Shown here one piece after another: positions 13,614-64,000 of a DNA stretch of 64,000 bases. The stretch is from an uncultured Clostridia bacterium (GTDB taxonomy: Bacteria; Bacillota; Clostridia; Christensenellales; CAG-314): the NCBI GenBank assembly GCA_947628135.1, contig CANQYT010000004.1:28566-92565 (forward strand). The letters run 5' to 3'. The notes below the pieces were generated by a model. That model worked only from the letters and a program-made list of their open reading frames with translations, did not search any database and was not told the origin of the DNA. A program made the position numbers and the translations under genes. The number at the start of each line of letters is the position of its first letter. Positions within the stretch are counted from its first letter, which is position 1.

Positions 13614-14200
13614 GTGACATTGTACGCAGAGCAAATAGTGTAGATTTAGTGAAGTGCTTATTTCCTACTTGCTTTTCTAATAGTTATTCCCGTTTCCGCA
13701 GCAAAGTTTTTTACTTTTACGAATTATACAGTCAAATATTTTGAAACAAGTTTTGGTTTATTTTCAAACATAGTCAAGTGTTCGGCTATTTTTTTTTCTG
13801 TTACACAAATTTAGTATTTTTTACAACAACTTTTTCCGTGTAAGTGACATTGAACGCAGAGTAAATAGTGTGGTTTTGGCGTAATTTGCTTTTTCCCCAC
13901 TTCTTTTTCCGATAGTGTTTCACGTATCCGCAGCAAAGATTTTTACCTTTTATGAATTTTACAGCCAAATATTTTGAAACACGCTTTTTTTTATTCTCAA
14001 ACATAGTCAAGTGTTCGGCTATTTTTTTTTCTGTTACACAAATTTAGTATTTTTTTACAACAACTTTTTCCGTGTAAGTGACATTGAACGCAGAGTAAAT
14101 AGTGTGGTTTTAGCGTAATAGTGCGTATTTCCGCTTACTGTTTTCAATAGCGTCTGCCTTTCTCGTGACAAGGTTTTTGCCGATTTTCATATATAAACGT
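13614..14200. repeat. tandem repeat, about 230-bp unit, 2 full copies plus a partial third
   Basis: Units begin with gtgacattg-acgcagag-aaatagtgt at 13614, 13844 and 14078 (periods 230 and 234). The unit ends and junctions are near-identical while the centres are diverged. Confidence 0.85.
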
Positions 14201-14322
14201 TACTTGAAAACTTTTTGTTCAGACTAAAACAATTTTTTGTCCTCAAACTTTGCTGCCGTCTGTTTGACAAAGTATTTTTTGACAATTGCCTGCCGTTGAT
14301 ATATTTCATCATAGTTTTCGGT

Positions 14323-14334
14323 GGGGGGGGGGGG
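14323..14334 (+). repeat. G12 homopolymer tract (intergenic)
   Basis: 12 consecutive G on the + strand, counted directly. Confidence 0.95.
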
Positions 14335-14543
14335 CGGCTTCGTCGGCGACTCGGAAATTTCTTGTGTGACGCGCGCAAGAATTTCGATGTGCGTGGGTGG
14401 CTGTTTGTATCTTGAAAAAAACGGTCTGTACGGCAAGCGCGGCAGGTTTGATTTCAATGTGGAATAAAGGCTCGCAAGATAAACTTATTCAACATTTAAT
14501 TTTGTTTAAGATTAAATTCATAAATAATTATTATCAAAAGTTC

Positions 14544-14572
14544 TTGCTAAATTTCTTTTTGCCGTTTATACT
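14544..14572 (+). promoter_or_regulatory. sigma-A-type promoter for comM-dprA-topA
   Basis: TTGCTA at 14544-14549, 17-nt spacer, TATACT at 14567-14572, 33 nt before the ATG at 14605. Confidence 0.45.
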
Positions 14573-14604
14573 TATAAACAGATATTTTTCCCGTGGAGAA
14601 TCTT

Positions 14605-29873: not shown

Positions 29874-30596
29874 GTCAAAAACGTTTCATTTGTTGTGAGT
29901 GCGGATATTTCGGCAAACAACGAGAAAACAACAGTGCAACACCTAAAAATCGGCGCGAGTCATTTTGCGGAGTCGTTGAAAGGTTGAAACATTGGAATAT
30001 TATATTGAAATTTTGTAAAATTTCTTGTAATTCAGAAACAAAACAGCGGCATTGGTCGCAGGCGTTGTGTTGACCTGTCGGCACTTCATTTTGAAAAGCA
30101 GTGAAATAGTTATTGTAATTTTTCCATTTTCGATTTGTGTACTTAACCTTTTTGATAGCAGATATTTTATTGACTTGGTCGGCAGGAATACAAATTATTT
30201 TTTCAGTATTACGTTATGTTTCTTGCGGTCGGTCGCCGCTTCGGTAAATTTCGGTGTGTTTTTTCGGTAGGTGTCTCGTCAGACAAAGTTAGGTTTTCCT
30301 AGTGGCGTAATTGAAACGATGCGAAAAAACTATGTTCAATAAAAATAGGTTTTCCAAATTATCTTAAATATCTGAGAAAAACGGTCGGTTTGGGTTGTCT
30401 GCTGTGCCGAGACTTCATTCGAATTTGTTCGTTTGTTTGTTGTTTGGGTAAATTTCGGTTTACGTTTTGCGCGGGCGGTTACTGCTTTGCGGGCTTTTGG
30501 TGGCGGCTGCGGTCGGTTCGGCGGTTGTTTCGGGTGGGGGAAAAGCGGTTTTTCCTCCTTTTTGCAAAAAATTTACGTAAATATTCCTTTTCGTTG

Positions 30597-30628
30597 TTGA
30601 CAAAAACAGACGGGGGGGGGGGTATACT
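30597..30628 (+). promoter_or_regulatory. sigma-A-type promoter of lipoprotein paralog 1 with a poly-G spacer
   Basis: TTGACA at 30597-30602 and TATACT at 30623-30628. The 20-nt spacer ends in G11. A GGAG RBS and the ATG at 30661 lie downstream. Confidence 0.6.
30612..30622 (+). repeat. G11 homopolymer tract
   Basis: 11 consecutive G abutting the -10 box, counted directly. Confidence 0.95.
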
Positions 30629-30660: not shown

Positions 30661-30963
30661 ATGAAAAGCCGTAAAATACTTTTATTGTTTTTGTTGACTT
30701 TGGCGTTGGCGTTTGCGATGGTTGCGGGCGCGGGCTGCGCTCCGTCCGAAGCGCCCCAACACACGCACACTTTTGCGGAGGGTTGGACGTTCAACGACTC
30801 CGAACATTGGCACGCCGCCACCTGCGGACACTCCTCCGAGAGGGATTCCGTTGCTCCTCACGACATTGACGGCGACGGTAAATGCACCGTGTGCGACTAC
30901 GAAACCGCCCCCGCGCCCGAAAAAATGACGTTTGAGCAACTCGTTGCGGATCACAAAGAGTAA
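30661..30963 (+). CDS. lipoprotein paralog 1, N-terminal part ending at a premature in-frame TAA
   Basis: Signal peptide with lipobox (LALAFAMVAGAGC) and a Cys/His motif. It ends at TAA 30961-30963, where paralog 2 has GAA. Confidence 0.7.
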   Translation: MKSRKILLLFLLTLALAFAMVAGAGCAPSEAPQHTHTFAEGWTFNDSEHWHAATCGHSSERDSVAPHDIDGDGKCTVCDYETAPAPEKMTFEQLVADHKE

Positions 30964-32235
30964 TTGAACGAATTTGTGACAGAGGCAATTGCGCCGTCCG
31001 TCCTCGCAAACAAGGAAATTCTTTCCGAGAGCCGCTACGTTGCTTCCGCGGAGGACGGAAACTTGGGCACAGTGAGCCTACTTTACATATACAAGAACGA
31101 TGAGACTGTCCGTACAATGGAACTTGCCGAAGTTACGCTTACAAGCACGGTCACAAACGACGACATTGCAAACGGCACGTTTGCAACTCCTGCCGTGAGC
31201 GTGGAAAAGACTGAAGTTTTTCAATTCGACGCGAAAGAGAACTTTGAAAAGCAGGACGTTGCGGAACTTCTGTACAAAGCGGCAAAGTGCGAAAGCGCAG
31301 AGGTGAAATTGTTCCGCGAACTTGAATCCGATTCCGTCAGGATTCGTTCCTTTGCTATCCTCGTACAAAGCGACGGCTTTGTTCGAATCAAAAACATAAA
31401 CGTCGAAGTGACCGACGACACGGACGAGTCGCTGAAAACCAACCTTGCAGATCGCAACAAATACGACGCGTTTACCGTCTCGGAAGTGGAATTGAAGGGC
31501 ACGAATATACTTGCGGGCGATTACCAACTTGAAGAATTCGAAGTCACCCCCGACGACCCCGATACCCCAAGCGTCATTACCGACAAACAACTCATTGCCG
31601 CGCTTGAACAGTACTGCAAAGACGATTTTTTGAATAAATCCAATATAAAAAGTGTATTTGAAGATTTATATGTCACGTTTGATAAAAATAAAATGTCCGA
31701 TGAGAATTGGTATATAAATGAAGATGAAGAGGAAAAAATCACAGCGATAGAATACTCCTTTTTCTACAAGGCATATGCAACACAAAGTCATTTTGTTATT
31801 TTCTATATAACGTCTGATACGCCTTGCTCGAAAGAAAATCTTGTAAAGGGAAATTTGACTACGGCTACTTTCAAAATAGAGAAAGAGTATTCATTTGTTT
31901 ACAACCCATCAATTCAAACCGAGCGGAGTGCGCTTGCCAATGCGATATTGACCGCGTGCAAAGGCGCGCCCGCAGACAGCAACTCGACTGTAATTTTGGT
32001 AGATAATGGCACTATTGACGATTCACAATTTAGTATAGTATGCAAATTTAACATCGTTGAAATAAGCGAAAGCGGTGCGACGGAATATAAAGTAAAAATC
32101 AGAAATGCAAAGAGCCTTGACCCAAAAGAGGCTGACGCTGAATATATGCAATACATTGCCGACGGATATTGGGCTCAAACCGCAACCCCACGCGAGTACG
32201 AAATTACAGGACGCAGGTTGGTAGCGGAAGAATAG
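30964..32235 (+). CDS. lipoprotein paralog 1, C-terminal remainder (same frame as 30661-30963; the whole 30661-32235 is probably a disrupted gene)
   Basis: 423 codons directly in frame after the TAA. It is colinear and highly similar to residues 101 onward of the intact paralog at 62355. It has no RBS or start of its own other than TTG at 30964. Confidence 0.55.
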   Translation: MNEFVTEAIAPSVLANKEILSESRYVASAEDGNLGTVSLLYIYKNDETVRTMELAEVTLTSTVTNDDIANGTFATPAVSVEKTEVFQFDAKENFEKQDVAELLYKAAKCESAEVKLFRELESDSVRIRSFAILVQSDGFVRIKNINVEVTDDTDESLKTNLADRNKYDAFTVSEVELKGTNILAGDYQLEEFEVTPDDPDTPSVITDKQLIAALEQYCKDDFLNKSNIKSVFEDLYVTFDKNKMSDENWYINEDEEEKITAIEYSFFYKAYATQSHFVIFYITSDTPCSKENLVKGNLTTATFKIEKEYSFVYNPSIQTERSALANAILTACKGAPADSNSTVILVDNGTIDDSQFSIVCKFNIVEISESGATEYKVKIRNAKSLDPKEADAEYMQYIADGYWAQTATPREYEITGRRLVAEE

Positions 32236-32286: not shown

Positions 32287-32860
32287 ACGTGCGGCAGTTA
32301 AAAGTGCTCAATGTTGCAAAGTTCCGCGCGCAACGGAAAAGGAAGTAAACCAACGCAACGGACAAGGAACAGGTTTCACTTGTTGCCTACGGTTTTGTGA
32401 CTTTTACACCCAAAACCTGCACAGCGTTCCTCCTTGCAACGTCCGCAAACATATCCCGCGCGACGAAAAGCGTACTCAAAGCAAAGGCTGTCGGGCGTAT
32501 TGTTGCAAAGTGGACAGCAGTATAAAGGGCGCAATTCGTTTTCAATGTCAAACGTGCGGCAGTTAAAAGTGCTCAGTGTTGCAAATGTCTGCGTGCAACG
32601 GAAAAGAAAGTAATCAATGCAACGGACAAGGGCGAGGTTTCACTTGTTGCCGACGGTTTCAAGACTTTCGCACCAAAAACAATTGCACAGCGTTCCTCCT
32701 TGCAACGTCCGCAAACATATCCCGTGACGAAAAGCGCACTCAAAGCAAAATGCTGTCGAACGTATTGTTGCAAAGTGGACAGAGGCACAAAAGGGCGCAA
32801 TTCGTTTCCGACGCCAAACGTGCGGCAGTCGAAAGCGTTCCGCGCCGTTTGCGGAAAACA
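32287..32860. repeat. tandem repeat, about 265-bp unit, 2 full copies plus a partial third
   Basis: acgtgcggcagt starts at 32287, 32552 and 32818 (periods 265 and 266). The units are well conserved over their whole length by eye, with substitutions clustered in a few short patches, and carry no conserved ORF. Confidence 0.85.
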
Positions 32861-32897
32861 ACAATTAAATATATTAAATAAAGTGCCTGTTTTTTGA

Positions 32898-32926
32898 TTG
32901 CAAAAAATAGGCGCTTGTGCTATAAT
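32898..32926 (+). promoter_or_regulatory. sigma-A-type promoter for rpsB-tsf
   Basis: TTGCAA at 32898-32903, 17-nt spacer, TGcTATAAT extended -10 (32921-32926). A 120-nt GC-rich leader follows. Confidence 0.55.
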
Positions 32927-33047
32927 TTACAAGGTTTAATTCGCATTTGCGCAAGATCCGTGCGTTGTGCCGAGGTTTGCCTCTCGGTTGCGGGCGGAGT
33001 TGACGGCGCAAAGAGGTTAAAAACAACAAAAAAAGGAGAAAGAAAAA

Positions 33048-53457: not shown

Positions 53458-53471
53458 AAAACGATATCTTT

Positions 53472-53504
53472 AAGAACCTATCGGCAACGGTAGGTTCTTT
53501 TCTG
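53472..53504 (+). terminator. intrinsic terminator after efp
   Basis: aagaaccta-tcggcaacgg-taggttctt stem followed by a T-rich tail. Confidence 0.75.
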
Positions 53505-53959
53505 TTATAAACTGCACGGTTACTATTGACACTTGCAATGAAAGTCGTCATCGCTGTCGTTTCGCCAAGAAGTGAAAGTGCGTGTTGCTCATCTACTTCA
53601 TTTTATACTTGCCGAAAATGTCGCGATTGACTGAGTGTTTGGCGTGAGTTTACGTTGAATTAAAACACTTTCCTGACAAAACGAGATAGATTTAGACTAT
53701 TAAATGTGAAGTATCATTCTGTTTTGTAAAATGAGTTAAGTAGAAATGTGCTATATTGAATTGTAAGTATTGTATTTGCACTAAGTAAAGAATTTTTTTC
53801 AGAAAAAATATTCATCAAATTTATATAATTAACACTATTGGAATTTTTGTCCTGTTGCCGATGTCAAAAATATAAATCGATAATGCTGTTGTTTTATCGA
53901 GGTGGCGTGTGCTTGCGCAAAGACTTCTAAGTATATTTTCCAAAAATTCCGCGATTGTA

Positions 53960-53968
53960 GGGGGGGGG
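53960..53968 (+). repeat. G9 homopolymer tract (intergenic, AT-rich surroundings)
   Basis: 9 consecutive G, counted directly. Confidence 0.95.
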
Positions 53969-54176
53969 ATTACCATTGTACAAAAAAACTTTCTATACAC
54001 AATTTTTGACATATTGACCCCTTACTGCAATGTCGCTATGGTTTTTAATTATTGGACGAATTGTGAAGAAATAGATAGCGGAACACTTGGCGAAAACAGA
54101 GAAACGGCGTAATATATATAAAATAAATGCTCTGTTCTTAAAAAAAAGCCCTGTTTGCAAAGGGTAATTTGATTCG

Positions 54177-54214
54177 CAGTTGTTAGACAGTTGCAAAAAC
54201 AACTGAGGGTTTTT
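54177..54214 (+). terminator. terminator-like hairpin inside the efp-spoIVA gap
   Basis: cagttgtt-13 nt-aacaactg (8-bp perfect stem) followed by agggTTTTT. Confidence 0.35.
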
Positions 54215-54353
54215 AACTTGTAATTAAAAATATTGCATTTTTAATGTATACAATTTTTTAATAGAGACAACTTTGTCGGTGAGTATTTATTGTTGCAAAA
54301 TTATGCCGCGCGAAAGCGGTCGCGTTTTAGCGTTCTATCGTAGGTGCAAGTAT

Positions 54354-54361
54354 CATATACT
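54354..54361 (+). promoter_or_regulatory. possible sigma-E-type -10 element upstream of spoIVA
   Basis: CATATACT, 27 nt before the ATG, resembles the sigma-E -10 consensus CATACA-T. The -35 element is unconvincing. Confidence 0.25.
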
Positions 54362-54387
54362 TTACCAAACGTATTTTGGAGGCAGCA

Positions 54388-55848
54388 ATGAACAACATTT
54401 ATCAGGACATCGCGGAGCGCACCAACGGCGACGTATATATAGGCGTTGTCGGACCGGTGCGCAGCGGCAAATCGACGTTTGTTACAAACTTTATGACAAA
54501 ACTGATTTTGCCGAACATAGCGGATAAAAACGAGCGTAAGCGCGCCAAGGACGAACTTCCTCAATCCGCGGACGGCAAGATGATTATGACGACGCAACCC
54601 AAATTCGTTCCCAATGCCGCGGTGAAACTGTCGCTCGGCGACAAGGCTACGGCAAACGTGCGCTTGATAGATTGCGTGGGGTATCTCGTGGAGGGCGCGG
54701 AGGGGCATCTCGACGGCGAAAAAATGCGCCTCGTCAACACTCCGTGGTCTGCCGATCCCATTCCGTTTGAAAAGGCGGCGGAAATAGGCACGCAAAAAGT
54801 GGCAACGGAACACTCAACGATAGCGGTGGTCGTCACGACGGACGGCAGTATAGGGGAAATTCCCCGTCAAAACTACATCGGCGCGGAAGAAAGAGCCGTT
54901 CGGGAACTGAAACAGTCGGGCAAGCCCTTTGTCGTGGTACTCAATTGCACAGATCCTCGCAGCGACTCCGCCAAGGAACTTTCGCTTGCTCTGCGGGAAA
55001 AGTACGGAGTGGAAGTGATTCCTCTCAACGTTCTGTCCGCAAGCGGCGGCGAGTTGGAAGAAGTGTTGCAGTGTATTTTGAAAGAGTTCCCCGTAAGGCG
55101 CATAGCGTTGAATCTGCCTATGTGGATGCGCGCGCTGGAAAAGGACAACAAATTTATCGCGGAATTGTTGGACCGCGTAAAAAAGTGCTGCGACGATATC
55201 CGCAAGATGAAGGACTCGGACAAACTTATCGCCGCGTTCGACGGGTGCGATTTTGCCGAATCAATCGCCGCGACGGATCTAAATATGGGCAGCGGTGCGG
55301 CAAACTATTCTTTCACGCCCAAGTCCGACTTGTTTTTCCGCGTGCTTTCCGACGAGGCGCAGATGGAAATTACGGACGAATTTTCGCTGATGAGTTTCGT
55401 TACGGGCGCGGCATACGCCAAGCGACGCTTCGAAGCGATGAAAGACGCTCTGGAACAATCTGATACGAACGGCTATGGGATAGTGTACCCGAAAACGGAC
55501 AATATGACTCTCGACGAACCGCAAATGGTAAAGCAGGGCAACGTCTACGGTGTAAAACTCAAAGCGACTTGCCCGAGTTACCACATTATTCGCGTGGACG
55601 TCAACACGGAAGTGAGCCCGATGGTGGGAACGGAACAGCAAAGCCGTTACCTGCTTGACGAGTACAAACAAAACCCCGACGCTATCTGGAACACAAATAT
55701 GTTCGGAAAGACGATGGCGGACCTTGCCAAGGAGGGGCTCGAAGGCAAATGCAACGCTATGCCTGCCGAAATCAAGCAAAAACTGACCCGAACGGTAAGC
55801 AAGATCGTCAACGAAAATCGCGGCGGATTGTTCTGTCTGATTTTGTGA
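54388..55848 (+). CDS. spoIVA: stage IV sporulation protein A
   Basis: IYQDIAERTNGDVYIGVVGPVRSGKSTFV Walker A N-terminus and full-length (about 490 aa) SpoIVA colinearity. A GGAGG RBS precedes the start. Confidence 0.96.
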   Translation: MNNIYQDIAERTNGDVYIGVVGPVRSGKSTFVTNFMTKLILPNIADKNERKRAKDELPQSADGKMIMTTQPKFVPNAAVKLSLGDKATANVRLIDCVGYLVEGAEGHLDGEKMRLVNTPWSADPIPFEKAAEIGTQKVATEHSTIAVVVTTDGSIGEIPRQNYIGAEERAVRELKQSGKPFVVVLNCTDPRSDSAKELSLALREKYGVEVIPLNVLSASGGELEEVLQCILKEFPVRRIALNLPMWMRALEKDNKFIAELLDRVKKCCDDIRKMKDSDKLIAAFDGCDFAESIAATDLNMGSGAANYSFTPKSDLFFRVLSDEAQMEITDEFSLMSFVTGAAYAKRRFEAMKDALEQSDTNGYGIVYPKTDNMTLDEPQMVKQGNVYGVKLKATCPSYHIIRVDVNTEVSPMVGTEQQSRYLLDEYKQNPDAIWNTNMFGKTMADLAKEGLEGKCNAMPAEIKQKLTRTVSKIVNENRGGLFCLIL

Positions 55849-61548: not shown

Positions 61549-61577
61549 TTGACAGCGCGCGCAAAATATTGTAATAT
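61549..61577 (+). promoter_or_regulatory. sigma-A-type promoter for the tRNA array
   Basis: TTGACA at 61549-61554, 17-nt spacer, TAATAT at 61572-61577, 22 nt before tRNA-Pro. Confidence 0.5.
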
Positions 61578-61599: not shown

Positions 61600-61676
61600 C
61601 GGGGTGTAGCGCAGTTTGGTAGCGCATATGGTTTGGGACCATAGGGTCGCAGGTTCGAATCCTGTCGCCCCGACCA
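61600..61676 (+). tRNA. tRNA-Pro (anticodon TGG)
   Basis: Acceptor cggggtg/cgccccg, anticodon arm tatgg-tttggga-ccata, T arm ggttcgaatcc, encoded CCA. Confidence 0.93.
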
Positions 61677-61696
61677 AACGATTGCTCGCTTAGTAA

Positions 61697-61773
61697 GGGC
61701 CTTTAGCTCAGTTGGTTAGAGCGGTCGGCTCATAACCGATTGGTCCGGGGTTCAAGTCCCTGAAGGCCCACCA
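61697..61773 (+). tRNA. tRNA with CAT anticodon, probably tRNA-Ile2 (lysidine) rather than elongator Met
   Basis: gggcctttagctcagttggttagagc...ctcataa loop. The body resembles Bacillus tRNA-Ile2. It is not initiator-like (no GGG/CCC anticodon stem). CCA is encoded. Confidence 0.85.
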
Positions 61774-61791
61774 AATGCAAAACATCAATCT

Positions 61792-61868
61792 GGCCCGGTA
61801 GTACAGATGGTTAGTACGCCAGCCTGTCACGCTGGAGGTCGAGGGTTCGAGCCCCTTCCGGGTCGCCA
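61792..61868 (+). tRNA. tRNA-Asp (anticodon GTC)
   Basis: ggcccggtag... with anticodon arm ccagc-ctgtcac-gctgg, encoded CCA. Confidence 0.93.
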
Positions 61869-61875
61869 ATGTTTT

Positions 61876-61951
61876 GCTTCGGTAGCTCAGTAGGTAGAGC
61901 AGGGGACTGAAAATCCCCGTGTCGGTGGTTCGATTCCGCCCCGAAGCACCA
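61876..61951 (+). tRNA. tRNA-Phe (anticodon GAA)
   Basis: gcttcggtagctcag... with anticodon arm gggga-ctgaaaa-tcccc, encoded CCA. Confidence 0.93.
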
Positions 61952-61972
61952 CATTGTTGGCAACAAAATAGT

Positions 61973-62049
61973 GCTGGTGTAGCTCAATCAGGCAGAGCAA
62001 TTGATTTGTAATCAATAGGTTGATGGTTCGATTCCGTTCACCAGCTCCA
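61973..62049 (+). tRNA. tRNA-Thr (anticodon TGT)
   Basis: Acceptor gctggtg/caccagc, anticodon arm attga-tttgtaa-tcaat, encoded CCA. Confidence 0.9.
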
Positions 62050-62070
62050 TTTTTTTATAAGATACATTTT

Positions 62071-62155
<85 letters not shown>

Positions 62156-62292
62156 AAGCCTCTCGATTACGCAATGTTGTGGTTGGGGGACTTTTTTTGT
62201 GCTTTTTTGTCGTCAACTTGCTTTTTTTTATTGAAAAACGTATTTTAGGATAGTTTGCGGATATTTATTGTTGTCAATTTTGCCTTTCACTG

Positions 62293-62323
62293 TTGACAAA
62301 TCGCCATGGGGGGGGGGTATACT
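62293..62323 (+). promoter_or_regulatory. sigma-A-type promoter of lipoprotein paralog 2 with a poly-G spacer
   Basis: TTGACA at 62293-62298 and TATACT at 62318-62323. The 19-nt spacer ends in G10. A GGAG RBS and the ATG at 62355 lie downstream. Confidence 0.6.
62308..62317 (+). repeat. G10 homopolymer tract
   Basis: 10 consecutive G abutting the -10 box, counted directly. Confidence 0.95.
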
Positions 62324-62354
62324 TATTTTATATATAAACTAATGGAGCAACTGT

Positions 62355-64000
62355 ATGAAAAAAAAGATTTTTTTATTTGCATTGTTGGTATATATCTTTG
62401 TTGCCGCGTTTGCGCTTGTTGCCTGTACGCCTACAGATCCGCCCGTTACGCACACGCACTCTTTTGCGGAAAGTTGGCAATACAATTCTACCGAACATTG
62501 GCACGCCGCCACCTGCGGGCACTCCTCCGAGAGGGATTCCGTTGCTCCGCACGATATTAACAGCGACGGCAAATGCACCGTGTGCGACTACGAAACCGCA
62601 CCCGCGCCCGAAAAAATGACGTTTGAGCAACTTGTTGCGGATCACAAAGAAGAATTGAACGAATTTGTGACGGAGGCAATTGCGCCGTCCGTCCTCGCAA
62701 ACAAGGAGATTCTTTCCGAGAGCCGCTACGTTGCTTCCGCAGAGGACGGAAACTTGGGCACAGTGAGCCTCCTCTACATCTACAAAAACGATGAGACTGT
62801 CCGTACAATGGAACTTGCCGAAGTTACGCTTACAAGCACGGTCACAAACGTCGACATTGCAAACGGCACGTTTGCAACTCCCGCCGTGAGCGTGGAAAAG
62901 ACGGAAGTTTTTCAATTCGACGCGAAAGAAAACTTTGAAAAGCAGGACGTTGCGGAACTTCTGTACAAAGCGGCTAAGTGCGAAAGCGCAGAGGTGAAAT
63001 TGTTCCGCGAACTTGAAGCCGATTCCGTCAGGATTCGTTCCTTTGCTATCCTCGTACAGAGCGACGGCTTTGTTCGAATCAAAAACGTGAACGTCGAAGT
63101 GACCGACGACACGGACGAAGCGCTGAAAACCAATCTTGCAGACAGCAACAAATACGACGCGCACGTCGCCGTCTCGGAAGTGGCATTGAAGGGCACAAAT
63201 ATACTTGCGGGCGATTACCGACTTGAAGAATTCGATGTCACCCCCGACGACCCCGATATCCCGAGCGCCATTACCGACAAACAACTCATTGCCGCGCTTG
63301 AACAGTACTGCAAAGACGATTTTTTGGATAAATCTGCAACAAAAGAAGTTATCGAAATGATATATGGTTCTTTTGATAAAAACAAGATGTCAGATGAAAA
63401 TTGGTATATAAATGAAGATGAAGAGGGGAAAATCACAGCGATAGAATACTCATTTTTCTTCAAGGCAAATGCAACACACGGTAATTTTGTTATTTGTTAT
63501 ATGACGTTTAATACCCCTTGCTCGCAAGAAAATCTTGTAAAGGGAAATTTGCCTACGGCTACTTACAAGATGAACGAAGAGTATTCACTTAGTTACAACC
63601 CCTCAATTCAAACCGAGCGGAGTGCGCTTGCCAATGCGATATTGACCGCGTGCAAAGGCGCGCCCGCCGACAACAACTCGACTGTAATTTTGGTGGATAA
63701 CGGTAGCACCGTAGATGGTTCTTTGGGCGGTGACGGACACGTCTGTCAATTCAACGTCGTGGAAATAAGCGAAAGCGGTGCGACGGAATATAAAGTAAAA
63801 ATCAGAAGCGCAAAGAGCCTTGACCAAAAAGAGGCTGACGCTGAATATATGCAATACATTGCCGACGGATATTGGGCTCAAACCGCAACCCCACGTGAGT
63901 ACAAAATTACGGGGCGCAGGTTGGTGGCGGAAGAAAGTGATACAAAAATTGACAAGCAGATTTTGGACGCGCTTGAAAGCAATTATATGCAAGGAATAAT
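62355..64000 (+). CDS. lipoprotein paralog 2 (intact; 3' end beyond the window)
   Basis: This ORF is not in the supplied track because it has no stop in the window. I translated it by hand from ATG 62355 (GGAG RBS) and it is open to 64000. It has a signal peptide with lipobox (FALVAC), the same Cys/His motif, and is colinear with 30661-32235. Confidence 0.85.
   Translation, partial: MKKKIFLFALLVYIFVAAFALVACTPTDPPVTHTHSFAESWQYNSTEHWHAATCGHSSERDSVAPHDINSDGKCTVCDYETAPAPEKMTFEQLVADHKEELNEFVTEAIAPSVLANKEILSESRYVASAEDGNLGTVSLLYIYKNDETVRTMELAEVTLTSTVTNVDIANGTFATPAVSVEKTEVFQFDAKENFEKQDVAELLYKAAKCESAEVKLFRELEADSVRIRSFAILVQSDGFVRIKNVNVEVTDDTDEALKTNLADSNKYDAHVAVSEVALKGTNILAGDYRLEEFDVTPDDPDIPSAITDKQLIAALEQYCKDDFLDKSATKEVIEMIYGSFDKNKMSDENWYINEDEEGKITAIEYSFFFKANATHGNFVICYMTFNTPCSQENLVKGNLPTATYKMNEEYSLSYNPSIQTERSALANAILTACKGAPADNNSTVILVDNGSTVDGSLGGDGHVCQFNVVEISESGATEYKVKIRSAKSLDQKEADAEYMQYIADGYWAQTATPREYKITGRRLVAEESDTKIDKQILDALESNYMQGI

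Follow-up and report, generated by a model that had tools for sequence, protein, structure and literature searches.

The lipoprotein gene that we call copy 2 probably has a promoter-spacer contingency locus of the porA, tp0126 and Vlp type, in which slippage of a poly-G tract switches or tunes transcription. We suggest that this tract, which is ten G's long, forms the variable portion of the spacer in a sigma-A (sigma-70 type) promoter driving a surface-lipoprotein gene. Slipped-strand mispairing at replication would lead to the gain or loss of G's, and the number of G's would determine both the distance and the rotational phase between TTGACA and TATACT. The altered geometry of the hexamers would then shift the strength of the promoter in a way that is heritable yet reversible, which amounts to transcriptional phase variation. 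A paralog of the gene, copy 1, has a tract of its own, so that the two copies could switch independently, and copy 1 is in this genome additionally disabled by a nonsense codon. The features are listed in Table 1, with coordinates that refer to the window, meaning the whole 64-kb stretch of DNA that was analysed.

Table 1. Features of the two lipoprotein loci in the window
Feature	Position	Strand	Remarks
Copy 1 promoter	30597-30628	+	TTGACA 30597-30602, 20-nt spacer, G11 30612-30622, TATACT 30623-30628
Copy 1 paralog	30661-32235	+	ATG 30661; pseudogene or truncated allele; in-frame TAA 30961-30963 (GAA in copy 2)
Promoter-like site of tRNA array	61549-61577	+	TTGACA, 17 nt, TAATAT; context, outside the switch
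Six tRNA genes	61600-62155	+	Pro-TGG, Met-CAT, Asp-GTC, Phe-GAA, Thr-TGT, Tyr-GTA; ARAGORN, Rfam
Terminator-like hairpin (62160-62189), then T-run	62160-62198	+	Between tRNA-Tyr and the lipoprotein promoter
Copy 2 -35 hexamer TTGACA	62293-62298	+	From the window sequence; kept in 10 of 11 homologous promoters
Copy 2 spacer	62299-62317	+	19 nt, AATCGCCAT + G10
Copy 2 G10 homopolymer	62308-62317	+	Abuts -10; proposed slippage-prone element
Copy 2 -10 hexamer TATACT	62318-62323	+	Invariant across all homologous promoters
Copy 2 RBS GGAG	62344-62347	+	7 nt 5' of ATG (62355-62357); kept in all homologs
Copy 2 lipoprotein gene	62355-64000	+	5' 1,646 nt, open to window end

The promoter of copy 2 and its upstream region

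The poly-G layout at copy 2 is a real feature and not a product of chance. The G10 tract lies between recognisable -35 and -10 hexamers, which agree with the consensus at 11 of 12 positions. The pattern TTGACA-N7-12-G8-TATAMT has two matches in the window, compared with 0.00 expected from 100 dinucleotide-preserving shuffles, and G or C runs of at least 9 occur four times, compared with 0.10 expected under a first-order Markov model. All four of these long runs consist of G on the + strand and lie between genes. The original prediction had placed each element of the copy 2 promoter, from the -35 hexamer through the 19-nt spacer, G10, the -10 hexamer and GGAG to the ATG at 62355, and the positions are exact to the base; the layout described for copy 1 at 30597-30628 also agrees with the window sequence (G11, 20-nt spacer). 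The second layout had further been called an independent repeat of the first. The layout is indeed the same, with the elements kept at 58% identity in the promoter-proximal and signal-peptide region (the gene bodies are about 90% identical). The copies are however paralogs, and therefore the second copy does not represent an independent origin of the layout.

Two other assignments were considered for this region and rejected. A minus-strand promoter that uses the inverted TTGTCAA at 62271-62277 would lack a usable -10. A promoter for a sporulation sigma factor (sigma E/K, with a -10 of the type CATA) was rejected by eye, the hexamers being near-perfect sigma-A consensus.

The TTGTCAA sequence forms one arm of a perfect 7-nt inverted repeat with TTGACAA (62271-62277 and 62293-62299, with 15 nt between the arms), the second arm of which overlaps the -35 hexamer. 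The repeat is kept in the copy 2 orthologs L001-L004, L009, L011 and L012, and is absent in copy 1 and L010. Its origin may be chance, or it may act as an operator.

Directly upstream of copy 2 is the array of six tRNA genes that had been expected there, which were the only matches at gathering score when Rfam was run over the whole window. The gene is 200 nt downstream of tRNA-Tyr and on the same strand, which suggests a different explanation, namely that read-through from the strong promoter of the tRNA array dominates and the poly-G promoter matters little. This had already been recognised in the original prediction as a threat to its interpretation of copy 2, which nevertheless stands, because a terminator-like hairpin with a T-run lies in between. 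The hairpin has a minimum free energy of -14.7 kcal/mol (z = -2.28), and its sequence is also found in L009 and L011. A hairpin followed by a U-run after a tRNA operon is what is looked for in a Rho-independent terminator, and this is the predicted function, although the stem is GC-poor, with only 4 of its 12 pairs being G-C, which would favour some read-through. The same promoter occurs with no tRNA array upstream at copy 1, which follows a terminator-like site at 30536-30558, and at the L010 homolog, and a promoter matching 11 of 12 consensus positions, kept in all homologs, would be unnecessary if read-through were dominant. We consider it very unlikely that read-through is the main source of transcription.

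Many contigs, from many samples, end in or just before the tRNA array (L002-L006, L009, L011, L200-L203). Copy 2 is consequently rarely assembled together with its upstream genes, which limits the comparative sampling of its promoter. A search for extra alleles of the copy 2 promoter by way of the neighbouring PfkB gene yielded none, the contigs stopping before or within the array.

The lipoprotein genes and tract length among their homologs

The complete product of copy 2 has 755 residues (P0001), as seen from an identical gene on contig L006, which comes from another sample. Its N-terminus, MKKKIFLFALLVYIFVAAFALVAC, is a signal peptide with the lipobox LVAC, in which the Cys is residue 24 and is kept in all full-length homologs. 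We took as a lipoprotein any product with a basic N-terminus, a hydrophobic core and, in the first 35 residues or so, a lipobox [LVI][ASTVI][GAS]C, and copy 2 has all of these. The description of copy 2 as the intact lipoprotein paralog is thus borne out by its lipobox and by the full 755-residue reading frame on L006. The product is predicted to be a membrane-anchored extracytoplasmic lipoprotein, and is putatively exposed on the surface.

The family is tiny, with about 9 relatives among 5.8 billion clustered proteins. No match was found in Pfam, in NCBIfam or, using a sequence profile search, in the PDB. An AlphaFold2 model has a mean pLDDT of 77.5 and consists of repeated alpha/beta modules; comparison of this model with the PDB using Foldseek gave only meaningless matches, with TM below 0.1. 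The lipobox is followed by a Cys/His-rich N-terminal motif, HTHxFxxxW...EHWHxATCxH...GKCTVC (window 62445-62590), where the confidence of AlphaFold2 is low. The same motif heads an LRR_5 protein located near the homolog in L001 (1940-3862). Stretches that are loosely similar by eye, unaligned, also follow the lipobox in lipoproteins of other Clostridia (L045, L079, L080, L090), which are downstream of the same promoter design.

The alleles have a mosaic structure. In its central region, the copy 2 protein shares 95% identity with copy 1 from the same genome (30760-32232 compared with 62451-63935) but just 43% with the allele at its own locus in a close relative, L009 (P0005), where the DNA upstream is 93% identical to the window. 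Depending on the allele, a C-terminal module of about 230 residues is present in one to three copies. These observations are consistent with gene conversion between paralogs and with size variation. The nonsense allele of copy 1 is shared with L191 and L192, from two other samples, and the ortholog on L007, from a third sample, is intact with 575 residues. A second and independent GAA-to-TAA nonsense allele occurs in the copy 2 locus allele on L012 (at about 552-554), the allele on L009 being intact. The two independent nonsense alleles suggest recurrent loss of function in the family. Mosaic alleles, apparent gene conversion, variable module number and nonsense alleles would together be typical of variable surface antigens.

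Both loci are in core regions of the chromosome, copy 1 being flanked by ruvX/DUF1292 and rpsB-tsf, and copy 2 by the tRNA array and a phosphodiesterase gene. Markers of endospore-forming Bacillota are found nearby, namely SpoIVA, Spore_YtfJ, and a cluster of STAS, anti-sigma kinase and sigma-factor genes resembling the sigma-F operon. The non-coding interval from copy 1 to rpsB contains a tandem duplication of a 265-nt unit (window 32287-32829, 2.0 copies, 86% identical), for which Rfam gave matches at chance level only. The tail of L010, downstream of another homolog, matches window 32866-32938, which adjoins this duplication, at 93%.

The DNA around every homolog of the lipoprotein was compared, which gave 11 promoters with readable upstream sequence (Table 2).

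Table 2. Spacers of the homologous promoters
Promoter	Sequence before the G run	G run	Spacer (nt)	Remarks
Window copy 2	AATCGCCAT	G10	19	
L006	AATCGCCAT	G9	18	Identical protein, another sample
L009	AATCGCCAT	G11	20	
L012	AATCGCCAT	G10	19	
L002-L004	AATTATCGTC	G9	19	Sister species
L001	AATTATCGTC	G10	20	Sister species; -35 is TTAACA
L010	ATCGGCGA	G9 + C	18	
L011	AATTGCCGTA	G9	19	
Window copy 1	AAAACAGAC	G11	20	

The -35 region, the G run and the -10 region are present in every homolog for which upstream DNA can be read, down to about 50% protein identity. In all 11 promoters the run of 9 to 11 G's is uninterrupted, within surrounding DNA that is 58-86% identical; the intergenic DNA of the homologs around the promoter is 77-86% identical to the window. 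Because these elements are kept in diverged DNA (58% between the paralogs), the -35, G run and -10 together form a conserved island. The lack of interruptions across orthologs implies that there may be selection for mutability.

The tract varies in length, as the original prediction had proposed in treating invariance as evidence to the contrary: at the same locus in different samples it is G9 (L006), G10 (window, L012) or G11 (L009), and in related species G9 or G10, these lengths being read from the consensus of low-coverage assemblies (cov 2.5-5.3 in the contig names), in which homopolymer errors are possible. An indel of one G is the sole difference between L006 and the window over 2,138 nt. 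In addition, four contigs begin inside a promoter tract: L005 starts with GGGTATACT, L007 with G10, and L191 and L192 with G8. The last three, from three other samples, begin inside the copy 1 tract. Contigs that begin in this way are suggestive of heterogeneity in length within the population.

The low coverage, and the fact that homopolymers are error-prone, leave room for a reading in which the G run, as an element of the promoter or its spacer, is static and kept by descent. There would be no switching, the differences in length would be assembly or sequencing errors or neutral polymorphism, and the contig breaks at poly-G could be technical. The other two long G runs in the window serve as controls here. 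The G9 at 53960-53968 has the same length in three other samples (L193, L194 and L196, contigs with 99.97-100% identity over 3.6-6 kb), as does the G12 at 14323-14334 in one other sample (L204). L196 is from the same sample as L006, and L204 from the same sample as L192. Contigs assemble straight through both runs, which are identical in all four of these extra observations, and it follows that length alone does not guarantee visible variation. Although the numbers compared are small, they speak for greater heterogeneity in the promoter tracts than in other G runs of similar length, and for differences that go beyond generic homopolymer error. Furthermore, a pure run of at least 9 G's has been kept where neighbouring bases have diverged, where point mutations would interrupt it if there were no selection, and genes for secreted proteins in unrelated taxa have the same design upstream, as described below. 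We regard a static element as quite unlikely, and a slippage-prone tract as the better reading.

The two control runs were rejected as further copies of the layout, having no -35/-10 context. They lie in unusually long non-coding stretches (about 13745-14592 for G12 and 53458-54388 for G9), and no convincing open reading frame and no Rfam match was found in either region. A strain about 96% identical to the window (L198) is without a 248-nt segment, 53958-54205, which starts exactly at the G9 run.

Spacer length and the same design in other genomes

The window contains five other near-consensus promoter matches on the + strand (at least 11 of 12 hexamer positions), all with a spacer of 17 nt, and four of them closely precede a gene (starts at 1400, 7629, 43133 and 52837). 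Among the promoters of the window, the two with poly-G, at 19 and 20 nt, are outliers. An optimum of 17 nt applies to sigma-70-type promoters and also to the poly-G promoters of tp0126 and porA, and in tprL a G8 promoter is active while G10 is near background (PMC7864442). Because the other promoters in the window use 17 nt, and the poly-G promoters that have been tested peak there, both copies are predicted from spacer length alone to be in low or OFF states, copy 2 at 19 nt and copy 1 at 20 nt, which agrees with the original prediction. Judging from these 17-nt promoters and from the reporter work on tp0126, tprL and porA, a change in tract length would be expected to alter transcription. 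We also infer that switching is frequent and reversible within a population.

None of the approximately 9 independent alleles of the family has a 17-nt spacer, the range being 18-20. The candidates for the ON length are therefore G8 (17 nt), G9 (18 nt), or an optimum that is shifted for a G-rich spacer; we infer that G8, and perhaps G9, is ON. This leaves two possibilities: most natural states are OFF, or a spacer containing a G run has an optimum other than 17.

Species-representative genomes were scanned with the pattern TTGACA-N7-13-G8-TATAMT, which gave at least 120 loci compared with about 15 expected for uniform base composition. A narrower pattern gave 58 loci in metagenomes, where about 1 would be expected by rough arithmetic, the size of the database not being given. 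Among the matches listed, the hosts are mostly gut- or host-associated, and include uncultured Clostridia, Christensenellaceae, Borkfalkia, Bacilli, Saccharibacteria, Treponema and Streptococcus. The first downstream reading frame has a hydrophobic, signal-like N-terminus at 77 of 98 genome loci (among the matches listed) and at 32 of 49 metagenome loci, compared with 274 of 957 control reading frames from the same loci (Fisher P = 4e-22 and 3e-7 respectively). Lipoproteins, type IV pilin-like proteins and PspA-like proteins are found among the downstream products of the matches listed. A tblastn search with the lipoprotein found no homolog encoded at the scan loci (L013-L190), and the scans are thus informative on the design of the promoter and not on the lipoprotein family.

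Six of the loci (L146, L151, L164, L170, L172, L189) belong to a human-gut lipoprotein family, beginning MKFVKKMLATLVACAMAMTLLTACGG, in which the promoter flanks are identical and the tract is G7, G8, G9 or G10, with spacers of 15-17 nt. This is a clear second example of polymorphism in tract length. A PspA-like gene, whose product begins MNKKKMILTSLASVAILGAGFV, is found behind TTGACA, 9 nt, G9 and TATACT in L022, which is titled Streptococcus pneumoniae, and in L158, an untitled metagenome contig.

The spacers in the genome scan are less variable than on permutation (variance 2.4 compared with 4.2), with a mean of 18.0, among the matches listed. The histogram of the same listed matches (15 nt, 11; 16, 17; 17, 12; 18, 26; 19, 39; 20, 17) is highest at 19 and dips at 17. 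Such a constrained spacer would fit a rheostat with a shifted optimum, in which the G run tunes the promoter, the best spacing is 18-19 nt, and the gene in the window is expressed. The family alleles, all at 18-20 nt with none at 17, point in the same direction, as do the PspA-like genes of L022 and L158, where G9 gives an 18-nt spacer. The histogram is however bimodal around 17, with peaks at 15-16 and 18-19, as would better fit OFF states flanking an optimum, and both the other strong promoters of the window and the tested poly-G promoters of tp0126 and porA (PMC7864442) favour 17 nt. On balance a shifted optimum is unlikely, and we retain the reading in which the tract switches or tunes transcription, with 17 nt as a candidate optimum.

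We suggest only tentatively, as something that may or may not hold, that a convergent design (TTGACA, 6-10 nt, a G run abutting the -10, and TATAMT) phase-varies secreted proteins broadly, and that the consensus state is mostly OFF. The taxa concerned would be uncultured gut-associated Clostridia (including Christensenellaceae and Borkfalkia), Bacilli, Saccharibacteria, Treponema and streptococci, with lipoproteins, pilins and other secreted proteins as the products. The suggestion that they are mostly OFF is based on the clustering of natural consensus states at one to three steps from the 17-nt optimum.

Comparison with known systems

Switches based on a homopolymer in the promoter spacer are textbook examples in Neisseria, Treponema, Mycoplasma and Bordetella. 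Viewed as a family of lipoprotein genes, the present case comes closest to the variable-lipoprotein system Vlp of Mycoplasma hyorhinis, reportedly described by Rosengarten and Wise in 1991. The Vlp switch is a poly-A tract in the promoter spacer. In both systems there are paralogous lipoproteins of variable size, each with its own promoter homopolymer, and in Vlp these go ON and OFF independently. Variation in size arises in Vlp from repeated C-terminal units, and here from the module of about 230 residues, which occurs one to three times. In contrast to Vlp, with its poly-A, its short C-terminal repeats and its wall-less pathogenic host, the system described here has poly-G, large folded modules, and two paralogs in the window, one of which is a pseudogene.

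The tract of the sortase pilus locus in Bifidobacterium breve is probably intragenic, acting by frameshift, whereas here the tract is in the promoter spacer. The report on that locus describes an ON/OFF switch based on replication slippage in poly-G (PMC9187656), and to that extent the two share slippage at poly-G and a gut commensal as host, the product being a surface structure in B. breve.

In porA of N. meningitidis, a poly-G tract between -35 and -10 controls expression (van der Ende et al., 1995, as related in PMC7864442 and cited in PMC5084427). As in porA, where expression of a surface protein depends on tract length through the -35/-10 spacing, the homopolymer is part of the spacer in a sigma-70-type promoter. 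The differences are that porA encodes a porin of a Gram-negative pathogen, while here the G run abuts the -10, the host is an uncultured, spore-forming commensal of the Bacillota, the gene encodes an orphan lipoprotein, and expression is predicted to be affected. In T. pallidum, tp0126 has poly-G between -35 and -10 with an optimum of 17 nt, and tp0126 and tprL have promoter tracts of 7-11 G's whose length varies in vivo, most copies having 9 G's (PMC7864442). These resemble the present case in having poly-G in the promoter of a gene for a protein with a signal peptide. They differ in being outer-membrane proteins of a spirochaete, and in that they have been proven by fragment-length analysis and GFP reporters, whereas the present case is known from sequence.

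We found no description in the open-access literature of a poly-G promoter device in gut Clostridia, of this lipoprotein family, or of the broad promoter design. A review from 2025, which also lists the Vlp work, notes that multi-locus phase variation appears to be restricted to pathogens, and asks whether this reflects a bias in the databases (PMC11868660). The interest of the present locus is that the same design is apparently common across gut-associated taxa and enriched upstream of secreted proteins; if the broad design is true, multi-locus phase variation by simple sequence repeats would not be confined to pathogens. If the variation is confirmed at read level, it would provide a cheap sequence signature in metagenomes for variable surface antigens, which are targets of IgA or phage, would warn that the consensus genome often shows these genes in the OFF state, and would explain the recurrent contig breaks at poly-G promoter sites. 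This kind of switch is well known in pathogens and hardly documented in gut commensals, and a slippage-driven switch of expression is the most likely explanation here. The mechanism itself is known. What is new is its probable occurrence in a gut commensal that is uncultured and spore-forming, where it would act on a fast-evolving family of orphan lipoproteins.
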